IMG/VR virus record: IMGVR_UViG_3300037420_000217
Source of the DNA: an uncultured virus (IMG/VR IMGVR_UViG_3300037420_000217)
Lineage: Duplodnaviria; Heunggongvirae; Uroviricota; Caudoviricetes
Direction: 5' to 3' (one strand)
DNA: 20,000 nucleotides
In this document: positions 1,295-13,346 of the stretch, in pieces
Layout of the letters: the number at the start of each line of letters is the position of its first letter
Numbering within the stretch: the first letter of the stretch is position 1
The notes under the pieces: generated by a model
Told to the model about the DNA's origin: nothing
The model's input: only the letters and a program-made list of their open reading frames with translations
Databases searched by the model: none
Translations under genes and position numbers: made by a program

Positions 1295-2299
1295 CTAGCA
1301 GGCCGGATCAACGATGCTGGGGCGATTGGCGCCAGCTTCCACTATGTTGCCGCAGCGCTTCACGTAGGTGGAGCGCTCGGTGTTGATGCTGGTCCGCCAC
1401 TGAGCAAGCGGCAGCGTCGCCACGCGATTGTTGGTGAGCTGGCATTGGCGGCAGTCATACAGGGCGATGCCCTGCGGATAGCTGCCCAGCACGTAGTTGT
1501 CGCTCACCGTGATCCGGTCGAAGCCGCCATCATCCACGCCGTCCCGGACGTGATTGAAGCCGCTGAACCCCTGGCTGTCGCCAAAGGAGCTGTTGAACCG
1601 GATCGTGATGTCGGCCACCGGCGGGAAGGTCGGACGGCTGTACATCTGGATGCAGTCGGGGTGTTCCAGGCTGGTGATGCGCGTGCCGTCGCAGACGTTC
1701 CGCTCGATCAGGCCCTTGTTGCTGCCTGGGCCAACGTTCACGCCATCCGACCGCATCGTGGTGAAGCGATTGCCCGCAATCCTGAAGTCGTGCGAGCCGT
1801 TGTCCATCACGATGCCGATCTTGAAGCCGTGGAACACGTTGTTGGTGATCGACATGTTGGCCGTGGCGTTGGACCGCAGCCCGTAGCCGTCGCCCTTGGC
1901 CCCCATCACACCGGCAATGCTGACCTCCGGTCCCTTGAGGAAGGCACCATTGAGGCTGAAGCCGGAGCCACCCGTGAGGATGATGGCATAGTTGTAGCAG
2001 TTCGTCAGAGCGCCGGGCACGCAGCCGTTGAGGAATGTGCCGCCCGTCACCTTGAAGTTGTTGACGTTCTTGAGGCTCATGCCGTTGATAGTGGAGCCGC
2101 GAGCGTCCACGGTCACGCTGGTGAAGGGGCGATCCTGGAGGACGATGGCGCTGTATGTCCCAGGAGCCAGGATGACAGTGTCACCGTCCTTGACAGCAGC
2201 CCAGGCCGTCCTGGTCGCTGTCTCAGGCGTGAAGTTGAGCGTTGCAGCGAGCGCAGGCGCTGCTAACAGGGTGAGCAGGAAGGCGAGCAGAAGTCGCAT
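1295..2299 (-). CDS. Secreted right-handed beta-helix (pectin lyase-like) protein, putative polysaccharide lyase/depolymerase
   Basis: Sec signal peptide MRLLLAFLLTLLAAPALA|A, DGDTVILAPGTY cap, repeated I(T/A)xN beta-helix rungs, HPDCIQ and SDGV motifs. RBS AAGGAG. Confidence 0.8.
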   Translation of the reverse strand: MRLLLAFLLTLLAAPALAATLNFTPETATRTAWAAVKDGDTVILAPGTYSAIVLQDRPFTSVTVDARGSTINGMSLKNVNNFKVTGGTFLNGCVPGALTNCYNYAIILTGGSGFSLNGAFLKGPEVSIAGVMGAKGDGYGLRSNATANMSITNNVFHGFKIGIVMDNGSHDFRIAGNRFTTMRSDGVNVGPGSNKGLIERNVCDGTRITSLEHPDCIQMYSRPTFPPVADITIRFNSSFGDSQGFSGFNHVRDGVDDGGFDRITVSDNYVLGSYPQGIALYDCRQCQLTNNRVATLPLAQWRTSINTERSTYVKRCGNIVEAGANRPSIVDPAC

Positions 2300-2308
2300 G
2301 TGGTCTCC

Positions 2309-5254
2309 TTACGAGGCGAGGTCGAAGGCACCGGGGCACCCGTTGCCGTTCGTCGCTCTCGTAGTCCCGCTCAGGTCTTCAGGGAAGCACTGATCAGTGG
2401 CACTGATCATCCCCTTGTGCGGCGAGAGGCTGGTGGGGTGGTAGTCCCCGCCACCTGCCTTCGCACCGCTCGGTGCCGACCAGGACTGATCGTTGACCCA
2501 TTTGGGATCAAGGTTGACGCCGGTCAGCGTGGTGGCCTCGAACACCTCGCCTGCGTTGTTGCCTGGACCAGCCACGTTGTTGAAGCTGCCAGCCCCAAAC
2601 AGCGCATTCTTGTAGCGGTCCACGCTGTGGATGGAGTGCCAGTTGCCCACGCGGAAGCGGTTCATGCGAGGTGTGGCACTGTCGTACAGGTCCGACTTCG
2701 CGTTGCGGTCCATGTAGGCGTTGCAGCGGTCGATCACGCGCTTTTGGACGCAGCCGAGGGCGCTGGGCGAGGTCTCGTTGATCGCCCCGTTGGAGGCCAC
2801 GCTGTTCTCGTTGTACACGAGGTTGATGCCTTCACCAGCGTAGGTGTTCCAGAGGTGGTACAGGAGCGGGATCGGCCGGATGGTGCCGTCAGCTGACAGC
2901 TCGCCGCCCTTCGAACTCGCGACGCCAGCATTGCTGTACACCTCAACGAAGTTCATCATCCAGCAGCCTGCGCGAGCGAGGTCACCCGTGGTGCCGGTCT
3001 GGTTGAAGTCCTTGGGCGTGGCCTTACACGTCGGGAAGCTGTTGAAGGCACGCATGCTCGTCTGGAGCTGAGGTCCAGGAAGCGTTGTACTGCCCGTCCC
3101 CTCAGCGCAGTAGTACTGCGACGGGTTGAACATGTTGGCGCCGTTGCTGAAGATGATCCCAACAACGTTGACCGCGACCGTGGTGCAGTTGGACGACTGC
3201 CCGGTCAGGTTGCTGGCGCTCATGGTGCCGCCCGCAACCAGCTTGATGTTGCTGAATGCGTCGATGCCCAGAGCCGGGCCACAGCCGTCGAAGATGCAGT
3301 TGGTGAACCACATCAGGCCCATGCGAGCCATACAGCGCTGTTGACTGGTCCCCGCGCCGGTGAGCTTGCAGCCTTCGAACCACGTCTCAAAGTTGTACTC
3401 AGAGGCGTTCGAAGGCGCGAGCGACTGATTGTCCAGCGCCGCCGTGGTGGTGTTGCCTTGGATCGTGACTTCCACGAACTTGACACGGCGACCACCGGTC
3501 TTGAGCGAGGTTGAGGCCGCAGGCGTGATGACCACATCCGCATAGGAGGACGTGGTGGACGGGTGGCGCTGGATGATCATCCAGGTGTCGCCCTTGGTGC
3601 CAGAGCTCATGTTGCTCGTGGTGCCGTGGTACCCGACGTAGGTGCCGCTCTTGAGGTAGATGACAATGTTGCCGGTGTCGTTCTTGTTGCGACCGCCCGA
3701 ACCGGTTGCCAGAGCGCTCTTGGTCAGGGCCGCGACCTTGGCCGCGCTGATCGTCGCGAACGGCGAGGCGTCGGCTGTGGCCTGGGTCAGGCTCGCCACC
3801 CCGGTGCCATCGTTGCCTGACGTCGGGTCCACGGTGGCATACATGGGAGCCCAGGCCGCCGAGGCATCCTTGCGGAACGGGATGCGCTTGGTGTTGTTCG
3901 TGGGCGCACCACCCGCCTGCGTCGGGATCGCGAGGCCATAGCCGTGCGTGTTGGACAGGAACGAAGCGCCCCGGAACGGGAACACATCGTACTCCAGCCC
4001 GTACCAACCATCAGAAAGGCTGCTGATGTCGATGGTCTGGCCGAACACCTGCACGATGTTGCCAGCCGTGCTGATCGTGGAGCGGACCATGCTCGTGACT
4101 TTGGCAGGCGTCAGCACCGTGTTGCCGTTGGACAGGTCGATCACGCGGAACTGGACGCAAGCGGCCATGCGGCCTGACTGGCCAAAGGGATGCCCAACGA
4201 CAAGCTCCGCACGCAGGCTGGAGGTCACACGCTGGTAGGGCTGCGTCAGCTCGGTGATGACCGGCTGGTATTGGGCTATGGTGCTGTTGTTGGTCTTGGT
4301 GATGATGTTGACGTTGCCAGCACGGCTCGCGCCGTACAGGTTGGCCGACGCATTGACAGCCGTGATCGTCTCACCGGCATGGATCGTCTGGTCAAGCACC
4401 ACGTAGATTTCAGCATCAGCCCCGTTCTGGATTTCCATCTTGGGGAGGGTGAAGCCGCCGCTGGCCGAGCCGATGCACTCCCAGCTCACGCCACCGTCCG
4501 TGACCACCTGGCCAACCGTGGTGTGCGTGGGGGCGGTGGCGCCGCAAGTCCCGGCCGTCGTGGCCCGGTAGAACTTGGTGGAGCCGCTGAAGTCCCGGAT
4601 GCGGCGATCATTGATGGCCACCACTTCACCGGTGGTCCAGTCGGGGTCAACCGGGAGGCGCAGGGCAATGGTCGGCTTGACAGTGCGTGACGGCGTAGTC
4701 GCACCGCCGGTGCTGTCGAAGCCCGCACCCTGGACCGTGAGCGTCAGCTTGGTCGGATCGAAGGTCTGCCCGATGGACATGCCCTTGAACACCAGCTTCA
4801 GGCCGTAGCCGTTGAGGTTCACCAGGTTCGTGGGGCTCGTGACAACCGGCGTGGCGTCCATGACCGTGACGGACAGCAGGTCGTTGTTGACAGCGCCGAC
4901 TGCGGTGCTGATGGAGAACGTGTCGCTGGTGGTGCCGATGTTGAGCACCACGTCCACGGTCGTGTCAGGATCGGTGCTGGAGTTGCGTCGCACCGAGAAC
5001 TGATCTCCGTTGACAGCCGTTCCGGCCGACGAGGTGTAGGCTCCACCGTTCTTGCTGTACGTGCCCCCGGTGACCGTGACCGCAGCCGTGCCATTGATGC
5101 CGGTGACGGTGATCGTGTTCGAGGTGTATTGCGTGTTGAGGGTGGCGCCCGTGACGTCGTTGAAATGGTAGGGGTCGGGCAGCACGTCAATCTGCCCTGA
5201 GACCTTTCCACCAAGCTGGCCGAGCCGTCCGAGGGAACCGGGACCTTTGCGCAT
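2309..5254 (-). CDS. 981-aa virion fibre/spike-like protein: Ig-like repeat + CBM5/12-like module + C-terminal beta-helix
   Basis: N-terminal GSLGRLGQLGG; Ig-like unit PDPYHFNDVTG...SNTITVTGIN...GGTYSKNGG...SDTFSIST; CBM-like WTTGEVVAIND...FYRATTAGT...TDGGVSWECIG; beta-helix cap VDPTSGNDGTG...SPFATISAA; terminal GDYHPTSLSP...DLSGTTR...GAFD. Very T/S/G/N-rich. Confidence 0.7.
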   Translation of the reverse strand: MRKGPGSLGRLGQLGGKVSGQIDVLPDPYHFNDVTGATLNTQYTSNTITVTGINGTAAVTVTGGTYSKNGGAYTSSAGTAVNGDQFSVRRNSSTDPDTTVDVVLNIGTTSDTFSISTAVGAVNNDLLSVTVMDATPVVTSPTNLVNLNGYGLKLVFKGMSIGQTFDPTKLTLTVQGAGFDSTGGATTPSRTVKPTIALRLPVDPDWTTGEVVAINDRRIRDFSGSTKFYRATTAGTCGATAPTHTTVGQVVTDGGVSWECIGSASGGFTLPKMEIQNGADAEIYVVLDQTIHAGETITAVNASANLYGASRAGNVNIITKTNNSTIAQYQPVITELTQPYQRVTSSLRAELVVGHPFGQSGRMAACVQFRVIDLSNGNTVLTPAKVTSMVRSTISTAGNIVQVFGQTIDISSLSDGWYGLEYDVFPFRGASFLSNTHGYGLAIPTQAGGAPTNNTKRIPFRKDASAAWAPMYATVDPTSGNDGTGVASLTQATADASPFATISAAKVAALTKSALATGSGGRNKNDTGNIVIYLKSGTYVGYHGTTSNMSSGTKGDTWMIIQRHPSTTSSYADVVITPAASTSLKTGGRRVKFVEVTIQGNTTTAALDNQSLAPSNASEYNFETWFEGCKLTGAGTSQQRCMARMGLMWFTNCIFDGCGPALGIDAFSNIKLVAGGTMSASNLTGQSSNCTTVAVNVVGIIFSNGANMFNPSQYYCAEGTGSTTLPGPQLQTSMRAFNSFPTCKATPKDFNQTGTTGDLARAGCWMMNFVEVYSNAGVASSKGGELSADGTIRPIPLLYHLWNTYAGEGINLVYNENSVASNGAINETSPSALGCVQKRVIDRCNAYMDRNAKSDLYDSATPRMNRFRVGNWHSIHSVDRYKNALFGAGSFNNVAGPGNNAGEVFEATTLTGVNLDPKWVNDQSWSAPSGAKAGGGDYHPTSLSPHKGMISATDQCFPEDLSGTTRATNGNGCPGAFDLAS

Positions 5255-5689: not shown

Positions 5690-7375
5690 TCAGCCGAAGG
5701 CTCCAAGCGCCCTGTCAAGAGCGGATTGGTTTTCTTCGCTCGGCATTGATCCGGCTTTCACCTCTCGCGGACCCTCGGGCACCTGCGTGGTCGGCACGCT
5801 GATGAGGCGCTGATAGGCGCGGCTGGCGGCGTCCACCTGGTCCTTGTATGCGCCCCTAGGGAACGTGGCAAGCTCGTTGAGGAAGGCGTCATTCCACGGC
5901 CCCTTGACGATCTTGACGTTGCCATTGTTCCACTGCGAGGCGAGGGGGATGGCGCGGTCAGCCTTGTCGCCTGACTCAGGCGTGATGCTGAACTTGCGGC
6001 CGTCCAGGGCCTTGCCGAGGTGAGCCTTCTGCGACTTGCCGGCCGAGCCGGGGTCTTGGGGCAGGTCCTGGTGCACGCCAAAGTCGTCATCGCGAGCGGT
6101 GTCAACGATGTGTTGCTCAGCCGCTTCGATCTCAGCCCTGACCCTGGTGACGTGCTTCACCACGTAGCCGCCGGTGGGCGTCTTGCCAAGCATCACGCTG
6201 GCTGTGTAGGGGCTGGTCTTGCGCGTGGAACCGGCGATGTCCCAGCCTCGCACCCATTCGCAGTTGGCAGGGGCGAACTCCAAAGGCTCACCGCACGCAT
6301 CCCGCTTGAACATGCCGCCGCCACGAGGCGCGGGGCGCTGCTGCAGCTGACCAGCAACAGCGTAGTCGCCGCCCCATGAGCTGAGCGTGCGCTTGAGGTC
6401 CGCGACCCCCTTGGCAGTGAAGCGCTCAGGGAACAGCAGCTCATCCTCGACCGTGCGGGGGTCAGTGAAGGTCAGCTCCTCCGGCTGCGCAGGATCAGCG
6501 CCCGCTGGTCGCAGGACCGTGTGGCAGCGTCGGCTGGGTTCGAACTCCATGGGCAGCTCTAGGTGCACGTAGGGCAGCCCCTCGGCCAGGATCAGGCCGG
6601 ACACGTCCCGCTCGTGGACGCGCTGCATGATCACCACGAAGGCTGACTCATCCAGATCGTTCACGCGTGAGGGGACAACTTCGGTGAACCACTGCGCCTT
6701 GCTGTCAAGATCCACCTCGCTCTCAGCGGTCTTGACGTTGTGGGGGTCGTCGATGATGAACCTGTCGCCCCGCTCGCCGGTCGCTGTACCGCCGACCGAG
6801 GTGGCAATGCGGAAGCCCCTGTGGTCGTTCTCATACTTCACCTTGGCGTTCTGGTCGCTTGCCATGGCGAAGCGATCACCCCAGAGGTGTTGATACATGT
6901 CGCTTTCGATCAGCTGTCGAGCCCGGCGGTTGTCCCGGATCGTCAGTGACTCGCTGTACGAGGCTGACACGTAGCGCAGGAAGGGCTGGTTGCGTGGCCC
7001 CCACTCCCAGCTGGGCCAGATCACCTGCGTGAGCAGCGACTTCATCATGCCCGGCGGGACGTTGATGAGGAGCTTCTTGATGTGGCCGTAGCTGACCGCC
7101 TCAAGGTGGTCGCAGATCGCCCGGATCGCCCAACCATCCTTCATCTCGCGGCCAGGCTCCAGGACGGGCCACATCATCTTGGCGTAGTCGATCAACGACG
7201 CCTCTGCGATGTCCTGGTTGAGCAGCGCCAAGGCCTTCTGCGCATCGCTGAGGGCATGCGTGACCTTGGTGTGGATCGCGAGCCGAGCGCGCTCCTCCGG
7301 TGGCATGGGGCCGCGCCCCTGCTTGGTCTTGCCGATCAGGTGGTGGCGTCCGTTGTGGGGGTCCTTGAAGGTCAT
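5690..7375 (-). CDS. terL: Terminase large subunit
   Basis: ATPase motifs LLINVPPGMMKS (Walker A variant), FIIDDPH (Walker B), VIMQR; nuclease motifs RGWDIAGS and FPRGAYKDQVDA; LLFPERF linker. Confidence 0.95.
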   Translation of the reverse strand: MTFKDPHNGRHHLIGKTKQGRGPMPPEERARLAIHTKVTHALSDAQKALALLNQDIAEASLIDYAKMMWPVLEPGREMKDGWAIRAICDHLEAVSYGHIKKLLINVPPGMMKSLLTQVIWPSWEWGPRNQPFLRYVSASYSESLTIRDNRRARQLIESDMYQHLWGDRFAMASDQNAKVKYENDHRGFRIATSVGGTATGERGDRFIIDDPHNVKTAESEVDLDSKAQWFTEVVPSRVNDLDESAFVVIMQRVHERDVSGLILAEGLPYVHLELPMEFEPSRRCHTVLRPAGADPAQPEELTFTDPRTVEDELLFPERFTAKGVADLKRTLSSWGGDYAVAGQLQQRPAPRGGGMFKRDACGEPLEFAPANCEWVRGWDIAGSTRKTSPYTASVMLGKTPTGGYVVKHVTRVRAEIEAAEQHIVDTARDDDFGVHQDLPQDPGSAGKSQKAHLGKALDGRKFSITPESGDKADRAIPLASQWNNGNVKIVKGPWNDAFLNELATFPRGAYKDQVDAASRAYQRLISVPTTQVPEGPREVKAGSMPSEENQSALDRALGAFG

Positions 7376-7536
7376 TGCTCGCCGTCCTTGAGCGGCACGA
7401 TGCGGAACCGTTCTCCAGTGGGCAACGTAGCAACCAAACCGCGCAGCTTGGTGCCCTTTGGGAACCGGATCGCTGCCATGATTGCTGCTAGGCGCACTGC
7501 GTCCTCAATCCACTCGTCATTGGGCCGTTCAAACAT
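7372..7536 (-). CDS. Hypothetical 54-aa protein between terS and terL
   Basis: MFERPNDEWIEDAVRLAA...PLKDGEQ. Its ATG overlaps the terS stop (ATGTTTGA) and its TGA overlaps the terL ATG (ATGA). The longer 129-aa track ORF is an out-of-frame extension into terS. Confidence 0.7.
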   Translation of the reverse strand: MFERPNDEWIEDAVRLAAIMAAIRFPKGTKLRGLVATLPTGERFRIVPLKDGEQ

Positions 7537-8083
7537 CGCTGTGATCCTCCAGCTTCTGCTGCGAGATGACCTGATGCTGCTCAGCGGCCTTGACGCGTTG
7601 AGCTTCCAGGTCCTCCATGATGATGTCCCGGATGCGCTTCTTGGCGTCCAGGCTGAGCTGCTTGAAAACGTCCAGGCCGCCGCCGAGCTGACCCTGGTGA
7701 TTGACCGTGATCTCGCTCTTGTTGGCGAACTCAGGATGGAGCTTGGTCGCCATGAGCTCAAGCAGCCGGTCGGACTTCTTTTGAACGTACCCGACCACCT
7801 TGCCCATGTGGAACACCGGCTCGTTCCAGCCGTCCACGGCCCGGCTGCGCACCTCAGTCTTCACGCTCTCAAGGAACTTGGCGTAGGACTCATCCCACAG
7901 CTCTTGCCACTCAAGATCGCCGATAGCCGCTTGCGCGTTGATGGCGTCCATCACGCCGCCATACTTGACGCCGGACAGCTCACAGCTCTTGTACTTCGCC
8001 CCTGTGAGCTCAAGGTTGGTGCATATCTCCTGGAACAACGCCCAAGTGATCTTCACCCTGCTCTCGTCTGGCCGCTTTGCCAT
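7529..8083 (-). CDS. terS: Terminase small subunit
   Basis: EVRSRAVDGWNEPVFHMGKVVGYVQKKSDRLLELM matches the common TerS pattern E..RRA.EG..EPVF..G..VG..RKYSD.LL; N-terminal HTH-like segment; lies upstream of terL. Confidence 0.88.
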   Translation of the reverse strand: MAKRPDESRVKITWALFQEICTNLELTGAKYKSCELSGVKYGGVMDAINAQAAIGDLEWQELWDESYAKFLESVKTEVRSRAVDGWNEPVFHMGKVVGYVQKKSDRLLELMATKLHPEFANKSEITVNHQGQLGGGLDVFKQLSLDAKKRIRDIIMEDLEAQRVKAAEQHQVISQQKLEDHSDV

Positions 8084-8472
8084 GTGTCGTCCCTAAACGT
8101 TGGTAGCAATGAGGCTCCGCGCCCGCATGCTAATTGAGTCATGAGTTGGAGGGGAGTGGTGTTTCATTGCCCAGAACACGCGCTCACCATTCTCAGCCTA
8201 CTTAGGTTCGTACTTAACGCTGACAATTGAACGTAAGTACACTGAATGCCATCATAAAACACACATAAATATATGTTTCTCTTTACGTTAGTTAAGTAGA
8301 GATTGATATACTTATGTTCTTGTGGGCTATCGGTGCCGGAGCTAGGGAATTCCCTGTCTCGGAATACCCGAGTACCCACGAGCGTGTCAAGTAAGGTAAG
8401 AAAGCCTGGGCAACGCAGCATAATACAACGCTTACCTTTATAGCACTCGTTAAGCCAAAAGTCGCCGTTCGC
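8084..8472. promoter_or_regulatory. AT-rich non-coding control region upstream of terS (late promoter, packaging site or origin candidate)
   Basis: 8241-8320 has 22/80 G+C by count. It carries several inverted repeats and a 1-mismatch CtrA-like box at 8291-8306. Confidence 0.55.
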
Positions 8473-8841
8473 TTAATAACGTGGCCGAATGCCCATGATC
8501 CGGGGGTTTAGGCACCTCCACTCGTATCCCCAATCAAGGTTGGTCGCCCACCCGAGCTTCCGGCTGCTCACTAGCCAGTCCGGCATATTGAGCTTGGCCC
8601 TCAGCTTGTGGATCATTTGATGGAGAGTGTTCGCCGGGTTCGATGGTCGCGGTCTCCCGGCCCAAAGCCCAGCAATCAGGTCCTCCTTGCTGATGTATCG
8701 CAAGTGGTGAGAGCTGGATAGGCTCGCGAGGTGTCGAGCCATGATGAGCTCAATGAGCTCGCCTTCCATGGGCGTCACGTCCACGACCCTTGGATATTGT
8801 CCGATGAATATGTGGACCTTGGAACAAGTGAGCTTTCGCAA
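8473..8841 (-). CDS. OmpR/PhoB-type winged-helix DNA-binding protein without a receiver domain
   Basis: VTPMEGELIELI...ISKEDLIAGLW...NTLHQMIHKLRAKL...LVSSRKLGW fits Trans_reg_C. Start revised to TTG 8841 (GGAGA 7 nt upstream), because the track start at 8940 lies inside the terminator. Confidence 0.72.
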   Translation of the reverse strand: MRKLTCSKVHIFIGQYPRVVDVTPMEGELIELIMARHLASLSSSHHLRYISKEDLIAGLWAGRPRPSNPANTLHQMIHKLRAKLNMPDWLVSSRKLGWATNLDWGYEWRCLNPRIMGIRPRY

Positions 8842-8924
8842 GTCGATGTCTCCGCAAGATGCGGCTCTTACATAACTCGCAAAGGATAATGGCGCTTCAC
8901 TTATTAAGTGACCTATCCCCGCAC

Positions 8925-8960
8925 AAGAAAAAGCCCCCACCGCTTCACAGCAGCAGGGGC
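8925..8960 (-). terminator. Rho-independent terminator
   Basis: Minus strand GCCCCTGCTGC-TGTGAA-GCGGTGGGGGC (11 bp including G-U pairs) followed by TTTTTCTT. Confidence 0.85.
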
Positions 8961-9000
8961 CTAGTCAGGGAGGAAACGCTCAGGGGTGAGCCTGAGCACA
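8925..9000 (-). ncRNA. Candidate alpha-r8 (MmgR-like) small RNA, about 76 nt
   Basis: 5' hairpin GCTCAGG-CTCACC-CCTGAGC, then unpaired GTTTCCTCCCTGACTA containing the exact UUUCCUCCCU decamer (8967-8976), then an intrinsic terminator. The 5' end is uncertain. Confidence 0.6.
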
Positions 9001-9023
9001 TCGCCCAGGTAACATCGCCCAGG
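8998..9023. repeat. 12-bp direct repeat ACATCGCCCAGG x2
   Basis: Exact copies at 8998-9009 and 9012-9023. Confidence 0.85.
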
Positions 9024-9036
9024 ACAGGCTGCCCGT

Positions 9037-9537
9037 CTACTTAGGAGGATTGTCCAGCCGGGGGCCGATGTCTGCTAGTACAACCCCAGCCAGACCGCCT
9101 GTATGGCCGAGCAACCACCAGCTGCCATCTGTTTCAAGCTCAGCAGGTTGCCAACCCTCGCCTTTAACACGCTTCACCCAATAGAACCCCGGCTCCCGCT
9201 TCGGAGGAGGATCAAGGAAGTCAGCCGCGTCCAGGAACATCTGCGCAGCTGGTGCGCCAACACGCGCAGACATACCTCTCAAGGCTTCAGCCAATGAGAC
9301 AGCCTCCACCGACCTCGGCAGCCCCTCCACCATCCAACGCACCATCTCGGTCGCCTGCGTCGCGGTGAACAGGTTCGTCCCGTTGGGCTCATGCCTCATG
9401 GGAGGTTTGCCCTGCTTGGCCATGTACTCCGCGCTGTGCTCAGGCTCGAATACGATCCCACAGTCAGGTGAGAAATTGGCAGGCAGCTTCCACCCTAGGA
9501 AACGGCTCACCATGTGCTTGATTTGTCTGTCATCCAT
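9037..9537 (-). CDS. Phage hypothetical protein (two domains)
   Basis: Start revised to ATG 9537 (AAGGAG RBS). MVSRFLGWKLP..FSPDCGI...GTNLFTATQA, plus a C-terminal REPGFYWV domain. Confidence 0.75.
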   Translation of the reverse strand: MDDRQIKHMVSRFLGWKLPANFSPDCGIVFEPEHSAEYMAKQGKPPMRHEPNGTNLFTATQATEMVRWMVEGLPRSVEAVSLAEALRGMSARVGAPAAQMFLDAADFLDPPPKREPGFYWVKRVKGEGWQPAELETDGSWWLLGHTGGLAGVVLADIGPRLDNPPK

Positions 9538-9775
9538 CCTTGTTCTCCTTCGATTTAGCTTCCAACTCGGCCACGCGATCAATCAAGCGTTTCTCACCGT
9601 CTAAATCCAACAACGGACTCAGTACAGTTAGCTCATTGTCGTACCAGGTGAACTGCGTGCCGATCAGCTTCCACAGGCCTTGACCGATGTGCTGGGCAAT
9701 CCGGGTTTCACCATGCTTGGCGAACTCGTTGGGCAGCAGCTGCACCCAATACAGGCCCTTCGATCGCTCAGTCAC
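9530..9775 (-). CDS. Hypothetical protein (GLYWV domain + short coiled coil)
   Basis: GTG start (9775 or 9778) overlapping the upstream TGA; protein-like composition. Confidence 0.7.
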   Translation of the reverse strand: MTERSKGLYWVQLLPNEFAKHGETRIAQHIGQGLWKLIGTQFTWYDNELTVLSPLLDLDGEKRLIDRVAELEAKSKENKDG

Positions 9776-12986: not shown

Positions 12987-13014
12987 GCTGTAGCTTGAGG
13001 CGGGGATAGGTCAA
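12987..13014 (-). promoter_or_regulatory. Housekeeping-sigma (early) promoter P2
   Basis: TTGACC-N16-TACAGC (GCTACA); shares CTTGACCTATCCCC with P1. Confidence 0.7.
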
Positions 13015-13346
13015 GAGGATTGATTGTCAACCCACCTCCGCACCAGGCGGCCCTTCCCGTCCCTCTGGGCAGTCTGGGAGAACTCTCGGGCACCGCCGCC
13101 CGCGTGGTGTAGACCCAGCCTATACGCACGTCCCACAACCGCGTTGTGGGTAGCTCCAAGCCGAGCGGCGATCACACGTACGGGCACGCCCTGCGCATAC
13201 CAGCGTCGCAGCTTCCCGTCCCTGTCGTCAGTGTGCCAGAAGGGGTGGAAGCGCTGCTGCTTGAGGATGACATGGCTGCGATCCTCCTGACCTTCCTCAA
13301 GCATGTGGAGATGGTCATCAGCAACATCAGGGTCTAGGATACGCAT
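13011..13346 (-). CDS. GcrA-like HTH protein (N-terminal DNA-binding domain only)
   Basis: WHTDDRDGKLRRWYAQGVPVRVIAARLGATHNAVVGRAYRLGL aligns by eye with GcrA WTDER...LKKLW..GLSASQIA..LGGVTRNAVIGKVHRLGL. No Cys-containing C-terminal domain. Confidence 0.78.
   Translation of the reverse strand: MRILDPDVADDHLHMLEEGQEDRSHVILKQQRFHPFWHTDDRDGKLRRWYAQGVPVRVIAARLGATHNAVVGRAYRLGLHHAGGGAREFSQTAQRDGKGRLVRRWVDNQSS

Follow-up and report, generated by a model that had tools for sequence, protein, structure and literature searches.

A probable, divergent alpha-r8-type small RNA at the boundary between early and packaging genes of an uncultured tailed phage

The candidate small RNA unit

The window, that is, the whole stretch of 20,000 nucleotides analyzed here, comprises bases 17074-37073 of the linear IMG/VR record IMGVR_UViG_3300037420_000217 (46,409 bp, estimated completeness about 70%). 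Its source is a real tailed phage. At the exact boundary between the replication/early gene block and the packaging/structural gene block, the minus strand carries a compact unit of a hairpin, an anti-Shine-Dalgarno decamer and an intrinsic terminator. This unit most likely represents a divergent alpha-r8 RNA carried by a phage; alpha-r8 is an alphaproteobacterial family of small RNAs (sRNAs), to which MmgR of Sinorhizobium meliloti belongs. An initial annotation of the window had placed such an RNA on phage DNA, and PHROG and Pfam scans bear this out: the element is internal to the phage sequence, at the junction of replication/early and packaging genes. The unit and its parts are listed below.

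8918..8998, minus strand: candidate alpha-r8/MmgR-type sRNA unit, matched by the Rfam family RF00519 at model positions 1-77
8978..8997, minus strand: 5' hairpin GCUCAGG-CUCACC-CCUGAGC, 7 bp with a 6-nt loop, from folding
8967..8976, minus strand: anti-Shine-Dalgarno decamer UUUCCUCCCU, the putative seed, an exact match
8925..8962, minus strand: intrinsic terminator with a 14-pair stem (8962..8931) and a U tail (8932..8925, UUUUUCUU)
9023..9012 and 9009..8998, minus strand: 12-nt exact direct repeat CCUGGGCGAUGU (also written CCTGGGCGATGT), two copies 14 nt apart

Read on the minus strand from 8998 to 8925, the unit consists of TGT, the hairpin GCTCAGG-CTCACC-CCTGAGC, a single G, TTTCCTCCCT (8976..8967), GACTAG, the terminator arms and TTTTTCTT. 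The sequence quoted in the initial annotation was recovered letter for letter at 9000..8925. The 5' end of the sRNA lies 38 nt past the stop codon of the open reading frame (ORF) at 9037..9582, and the next credible ORF begins near 8769; the element is therefore located in a non-coding gap. Folding, a terminator scan and the ORF positions thus confirmed the 7-bp hairpin and the intrinsic terminator in a non-coding gap that had been read from this sequence. On the plus strand, an ORF of 61 amino acids (8859..9044) runs opposite the element and showed no PHROG match and no family. A plus-strand gene behind the complementary AGGGAGGAAA was rejected, as this ORF has no family and its sequence is implausible.

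The 5' hairpin has a free energy of -10.7 kcal/mol and ranks third for stability among 75 phage-borne elements (median -6.4). Its loop lacks the UCCUU of the common form GCCC-UCCUU-GGGC. The terminator is the strongest intrinsic terminator in the window: its stem is the longest among nine terminator-like sites found by the terminator scan, and its free energy is -27.1 kcal/mol compared to a median of -22.8 in the 75 elements. In the 74-nt RNA 8998..8925 the decamer showed a mean unpaired probability of 0.99, which changed to 0.77-0.81 with five to six extra 5' nucleotides. The direct repeat runs up to the first base of the sRNA, and a search of the 46-kb record that allowed 0 or 1 mismatch found no copy beyond these two. 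Its role may be that of an operator or a processing signal, or it may be a duplication caused by slippage.

Assignment to the alpha-r8 family

When the segment 8800..9150 (351 nt) was compared with all Rfam families, RF00519 (suhB, "Makes More Granules Regulator RNA") was by far the best match, with 35.9 bits and an E-value of 5.9e-6. Against the whole 46,409-bp record, the same match reached an E-value of 1.9e-7. The covariance-model check proposed in the initial annotation hence gave a full-length match, but with a score below the Rfam gathering score of 41, and no Rfam match at gathering thresholds was obtained anywhere in the 20-kb window. Among 14 control genomes, RF00519 matches at E ≤ 0.001 were restricted to Caulobacter. 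Three alphaproteobacterial genomes contained 10 matches at this threshold, ranging from 71.3 to 29.2 bits, of which five were below 41; the sole match in a Rhodobacter capsulatus genome had 29.2 bits. Scores below the gathering threshold are common for members of this family. In the alignment, the score was lost in the 5' hairpin and in the longer terminator loop. The 13-nt core GCGUUUCCUCCCU agrees with the consensus in full, whereas the hairpin and the terminator are entirely different from it.

Three features have been used to define alpha-r8 RNAs: they have a Rho-independent terminator, carry 5'-UUUCCUCCCU-3' as an internal single-stranded stretch, and form a weak hairpin ahead of this decamer (PMC12559287). 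All three architectural features are present in the phage element, with the exact single-stranded decamer directly downstream of the hairpin; the architecture named in the initial annotation therefore agrees with that published description. The hairpin is correctly placed and has the same closing GC, but with 7 bp, -10.7 kcal/mol and another loop it deviates from the weak hairpin of the definition. Synteny with an N-formylglutamate amidohydrolase gene was not found, the neighbours being phage genes. According to the same source, this synteny marks the ancestral alpha-r8 copy only and not the paralogues, which carry unrelated promoters; the family is described there as conserved across Alphaproteobacteria other than Rickettsiales, and its spread is ascribed to duplication, vertical descent and lateral transfer (PMC12559287).

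The closest known counterpart is MmgR, which limits the accumulation of polyhydroxybutyrate and whose promoter is under NtrC/AniA control (PMC7143759). The phage element resembles it in a length of about 77 nt, the exact and unpaired decamer, the hairpin directly 5' and the Rho-independent terminator 3' of it. In contrast to MmgR, it has the 7-bp GCUCAGG/CCUGAGC hairpin with a CUCACC loop instead of GCCC-UCCUU-GGGC, and the spacer that follows its decamer lacks one nucleotide (CCCU-GACU). Furthermore, it is located in a phage and not beside a formylglutamate amidohydrolase gene, and it follows an ORF after 38 nt without a recognisable NtrC/AniA-controlled promoter.

Similarly, SisA-D of Caulobacter crescentus, whose sponge is CrfA, represent the same family and seed, and these paralogues have unrelated promoters, as a phage copy would behave. 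Those copies are chromosomal. SisA was described as repressing mRNAs directly by pairing of the decamer with 5' untranslated regions (UTRs), with Hfq, as supported by compensatory mutations at the decamer; its regulon in Caulobacter, shown in 2025, includes TonB-dependent receptors, transporters and carbon metabolism (PMC12559287).

Copies in other phages

A pattern scan of IMG/VR with the core plus NNAC yielded at least 119 loci. In at least 54 of them the core was followed by a terminator, at least 51 were unrelated ribosome-binding sites on the other strand, and at least 14 were unclear. In the unrelated loci (e.g., L003, L009, and L015), the 17-mer on the opposite strand is the strong ribosome-binding site AAGGGAGGAAACGCAGATGAGT; they belong to a family of contigs of 24-46 kb, many of them from one metagenome. 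The spacer variant of the window, GCGTTTCCTCCCTGACT, was found in 56 IMG/VR loci, 50 of which have a terminator. Both scans together gave at least 104 loci with core plus terminator. The hairpin takes the canonical form GCCC-N4-6-GGGC in 63 of the 104 matches listed, while the other 41, like the window, do not have it. When 20 loci with core plus terminator were examined with Rfam at gathering thresholds, 12 passed RF00519 (43.1-68.6 bits) and eight failed.

The surroundings of 54 loci with core plus terminator were examined with Pfam, using ORF length and E-value cut-offs that varied between examinations, and the neighbours were phage genes. A large terminase subunit (TerL) was located within 3 kb of the sRNA in seven of the 54 loci: downstream and on the same strand in four (L004, L045, L057, and L146), and upstream with a portal gene downstream in L067, L073, and L159. 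A CI-type repressor of the S24 type was found within 3 kb in another count of seven of 54 (L005, L013, L020, L038, L048, L055, and L136). Further neighbours were capsid, muramidase, DNA polymerase, GcrA, methyltransferase, RusA and collagen-like fibre proteins. Host-like neighbours were an epimerase (L135), DUF1254/DUF1214 (L168) and an outer-membrane beta-barrel (L042), and some of these three loci may include host flank. At L004 (3280-3984), a NusG-like gene is directly upstream of an alpha-r8 RNA with 56.4 bits, and a gpA-type TerL follows about 1.6 kb downstream on the same strand. At L025 (3062-3739), a Tad3 anti-Thoeris gene (Pfam E-value 2.4e-40) is directly downstream of the alpha-r8-like RNA, which places this sRNA among accessory counter-defence genes. 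GcrA-like genes near the sRNA were also seen in L025 and L027.

Additionally, a canonical copy was compared by BLAST with 50,697 deposited phage records. The core was found in the five records below; six others matched another part of the query.

Bradyrhizobium phage ppBeUSDA76-1: RF00519, 62.8 bits
"Microcystis phage" Mwe-JY08 (L190, PP395640.1): RF00519, 62.8 bits
"Microcystis phage" vB_MweS-yong2 (L193, OM681334.1): RF00519, 47.0 bits
Bradyrhizobium phage BDU-MI-1: RF00519, 37.0 bits
Bradyrhizobium phage ppBdUSDA122-1: RF00519, 32.0 bits

Three of these five copies reach the gathering score or exceed it; all five lie in gaps that bear no annotation, with no RNA feature recorded. In ppBeUSDA76-1 and ppBdUSDA122-1, the RNA directly precedes an HNH endonuclease gene, two small genes and the TerL gene, all on the same strand; as in the window, it is thus found just upstream of the terminase block. 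Three of the deposited copies score 47-63 bits with a canonical hairpin, unlike the window. They are also 250-350 nt away from the preceding gene, so they probably have promoters of their own. The two phages deposited as Microcystis phages carry an sRNA family that is otherwise confined to Alphaproteobacteria, which makes their true hosts questionable. In vB_MweS-yong2 the RF00519 match (2495-2575) is flanked by the last of the late genes and the integrase gene. An attachment site would be expected at this position, and a host alpha-r8 gene may be where this phage integrates.

The initial annotation had stated that no phage-borne member was described. This stood in so far as we found no paper describing a phage-borne alpha-r8 RNA, and Lagares et al. 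(2016), on alpha-r8 phylogeny, might mention prophage copies; it did not stand for the databases, where threshold-level copies are present without annotation in GenBank phages and many IMG/VR contigs. These matches suggest that phage-borne alpha-r8 copies are not rare but a broad, unannotated phenomenon, of which the window would be a further divergent example and not a unique case.

Genetic context and proposed role

All genes of the context described here are on the minus strand. The first block encodes, in this order, a DNA polymerase, a homing endonuclease, a helicase, a primase and a MazG-like pyrophosphatase (PHROG and Pfam scans). About 20 small ORFs, one of them GcrA-like, lie between these replication genes and the sRNA. 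After the sRNA follow a winged-helix ORF, an AT-rich gap, the small (TerS) and large terminase subunits, a protein of 981 amino acids and a beta-helix protein, and thereafter the structural genes for portal, adaptor, head-closure, head-morphogenesis, tape measure and baseplate hub proteins. No integrase, no CI-type repressor and no tRNA was seen in the 46 kb of the record, that is, in about 70% of the genome. The features next to the sRNA, and the GcrA-like ORF, are as follows.

13011..13346, minus strand: GcrA-like ORF, matching the cell-cycle regulator GcrA over its N-terminal part (Pfam 31.6 bits, cut-off 26.9)
9037..9582, minus strand: last ORF of the early/middle block, 181 amino acids, no Pfam or PHROG match; relatives in five IMG/VR loci
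8473..8769, minus strand: small OmpR-type (Trans_reg_C) winged-helix ORF (PF00486, 26.2 bits, equal to the cut-off; E-value 8.6e-6), start codon uncertain
8084..8472, minus strand: AT-rich non-coding gap of about 390 bp before the TerS gene (GC content 52% over 8001-9000)
7529..8083, minus strand: terminase small subunit (phrog_4044, E-value 8.4e-22)
5690..7375, minus strand: terminase large subunit (phrog_38, E-value 8.6e-72)

The winged-helix ORF, which had no PHROG family match, stands directly after the terminator and lacks a receiver domain; its product may regulate late genes of the phage. A single sigma-70-like site was found in the region, TTAACT-16-TATATT at 8295..8268; it is inside the AT-rich gap, which is likely to be a late promoter or packaging-site region. 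For the sRNA itself, the initial annotation had proposed the promoter TAGACG-N17-GATGTT. These letters are present, but they match the sigma-70 consensus at only four of six and three of six positions and were returned by neither of two promoter scans. Given this weak, unlisted promoter and the distance of 38 nt from the stop codon, an origin from the 3' end (3' UTR) of the early operon is the better guess.

From the sequence, the structure, the family match, the phage context and the recurrence in other phages, we infer how the RNA may be transcribed, processed, bound by Hfq and directed to targets. The reading that we consider probable on balance assigns two roles to the unit: its terminator would end the early/replication operon, and the released 3' end would act as an alpha-r8-type sRNA that pairs with host ribosome-binding sites, aided by Hfq. 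Specifically, the long minus-strand replication/early transcription unit would stop before the winged-helix regulator gene and the packaging genes. The 3' end released at the terminator would be a short RNA, about 74-81 nt long, that arises by cleavage within the 3' UTR following the last early ORF or else from initiation at an unrecognised promoter. In this short form the decamer is predicted to be unpaired between the 5' hairpin and the terminator, and the seed would be fully open only after processing. By analogy with SisA, it would then pair with the Shine-Dalgarno region of host mRNAs and repress their translation, with Hfq sitting on the terminator and the U tail. In effect, the phage would impose the host's own alpha-r8 regulon during infection, outside the control of host promoters. 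In the window, as in two Bradyrhizobium phages and in four of 54 IMG/VR loci, the RNA is found shortly ahead of terminase genes of the same strand, and this recurrent position speaks in favour of the dual role.

Several observations weigh against it. No sigma-70-like promoter was found upstream of the sRNA in the two promoter scans, and the RF00519 match, at 35.9 bits, falls short of the gathering score. In strength the 5' hairpin far exceeds the usual weak hairpin of the family, and its loop is devoid of the usual CU-rich sequence. The decamer, which the initial annotation expected to be unpaired, is so in the 74-nt RNA, but its unpaired probability is only 0.50-0.52 in read-through forms extended 5' into the upstream mRNA, because an upstream GGG pairs with the CCC of the seed and half sequesters it. 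In the set collected by pattern, the 13-nt core is invariant by construction, so that its invariance is no independent evidence. Covariation of the hairpin across the phage-borne set is weak: 75.7% of the cells are paired, six double changes were counted, and 16 of 500 shuffles were as high, in a MAFFT alignment that places the longer hairpin of the window out of register. The conservation in related phages anticipated in the initial annotation was not borne out. The element is shared only by one IMG/VR contig from another sample, which is 99.98-99.99% identical over 6-11.7 kb and has the identical element and RF00519 match; at such identity it yields no information on conservation. In four relatives of the upstream ORF that are more distant (46-73% identity over part of it), no RF00519 match appeared at E ≤ 1, nor did one at E ≤ 0.5 in any of the 11 prophage regions with a related TerL, in which about 4 kb upstream of TerL were covered. 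There is therefore no conservation or covariation within the phage lineage.

It also follows from this absence in distant relatives that the element is not an old conserved part of the lineage; it looks like a sporadically acquired gene. No near DNA match of the phage was found among the 50,697 phage records, and the element alone gave two 24-nt matches at an E-value of 0.4. A single-protein search with TerL returned nothing in genome_contigs and only the near-identical contig in viral_contigs, and a search with TerS returned this contig and two weak relatives. Likewise, no bacterial donor emerged with the pattern GAGCGTTTCCTCCCTGAC: its 32 genome matches were mostly coding, and none of the four alpha-r8-like ones has the hairpin of the window.

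Captured host alpha-r8 DNA might have been kept for termination only, with a seed that is intact by recency or chance and has no role in trans. We regard this as unlikely, even though the strongest terminator of the window is found exactly at the early/late boundary, begins 38 nt after a stop codon without a promoter having been found, and is missing in distant relatives. In other phages, too, the elements are often located at operon ends, after capsid, muramidase, polymerase or tail-fibre genes. However, termination needs neither the decamer nor the 5' hairpin. The untouched 13-nt core within a diverged hairpin and terminator fits selection on the seed rather than recent capture, and the bacterial matches offered no copy with this hairpin. 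It appears rather improbable that the unit is primarily a regulated terminator, where read-through by antitermination or leakage would time the winged-helix regulator and the late genes and the short RNA would be a by-product; this explanation is compatible with an RNA that also acts in trans. It would be in line with the position of the unit directly before the regulator gene and the late module, with the NusG-like gene directly upstream of the sRNA and TerL downstream at L004, and with the sRNA ahead of the HNH gene, two further genes and TerL in the two Bradyrhizobium phages. The PR'-tR' 6S transcript of lambda resembles such an arrangement. Nevertheless, no antiterminator-like gene was recognised next to the unit, the upstream ORF matching neither a Pfam nor a PHROG family; a separate promoter-like site and the AT-rich gap are interposed between the sRNA and the TerS gene; and TerL is downstream within 3 kb in only four of the 54 other loci.

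That a plain hairpin, a spacer rich in C and U, and a terminator should resemble alpha-r8 by chance is very improbable. The score is indeed under the gathering threshold, and the same 17-mer arises as an opposite-strand ribosome-binding site in 51 of the at least 119 IMG/VR loci, but the E-value of 1.9e-7 for the record, the full-length match, and the correct order and spacing of hairpin, core and terminator speak against chance, and no credible plus-strand gene lies behind the complementary sequence. Least credible of all, at close to no chance, is that a host alpha-r8 gene serves as integration site and the phage bears a portion of this gene as its attachment site. The RF00519 match adjoining the integrase gene in vB_MweS-yong2 would offer a parallel, as would the phage-associated partial sRNA copies described for SdsR (PMC5913331). 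The match in the window, however, is full length and not a 3' fragment, no integrase was found in the 46 kb, and the element is located between the early genes and the TerS gene.

The initial annotation had suggested that the RNA could rewire host carbon metabolism, titrate Hfq or a sponge RNA, or tune ribosome-binding sites of the phage itself; a search for targets within the phage gave no sign of the last. The full complement AGGGAGGAAA occurs in the phage only on the antisense strand of the element. A duplex scan of the minus-strand RNA gave 846 sites at -14 kcal/mol or below compared to 1308 in a shuffled genome, and thus no enrichment. All 12 runs returned by a search of sequencing data for the phage were DNA runs, from soil or rhizosphere metagenomes; no RNA run was among them.

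As a wider and tentative suggestion, which we hold to be possible but doubtful, alpha-r8 copies might be a widespread take-over device of alphaproteobacterial phages and prophages, which would supply the seed from their own transcription units. If so, forced repression of host TonB-dependent receptors, transporters and carbon-switch genes is possible. Phages often use outer-membrane proteins of this kind, such as TonB-dependent receptors, to attach to their hosts. The outcome could be exclusion of superinfecting phages, a host kept in a "feast" state, or the titration of a sponge of the CrfA type. In this phage, an RNA from the 3' end of the early operon would increase in dose with early transcription. 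A phage copy would be a direct viral route to operate a core post-transcriptional switch of the host. With at least 104 IMG/VR loci and five deposited phage genomes, such copies may generally have a part, so far overlooked, in the interplay of phages with soil and rhizosphere bacteria; the window contributes a divergent case from a phage with replication genes of its own. The enterobacterial phage-encoded anti-sRNAs AsxR and AgvB (PMC12559287) are comparable in that a small RNA supplied by a phage would intervene in the Hfq-dependent network of the host. Those RNAs are sponges against host sRNAs without a host family, whereas the RNA of the window would itself be a copy from a core sRNA family of the host.

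The GcrA-like gene, the TerL relatives and the range of the RNA family point to a soil or rhizosphere alphaproteobacterium as the host. TerL relatives (E ≤ 1e-30) were found, at up to 50% identity, in 40 of 401 sampled genomes, a set of Alphaproteobacteria only; an unpublished genome (G043) is part of this tally. Between the large terminase and portal genes (1295-5254, minus strand), the protein of 981 amino acids has no family, and the beta-helix protein is a right-handed one of 334 amino acids. This interval is an unusual site for fibre- or depolymerase-like proteins.

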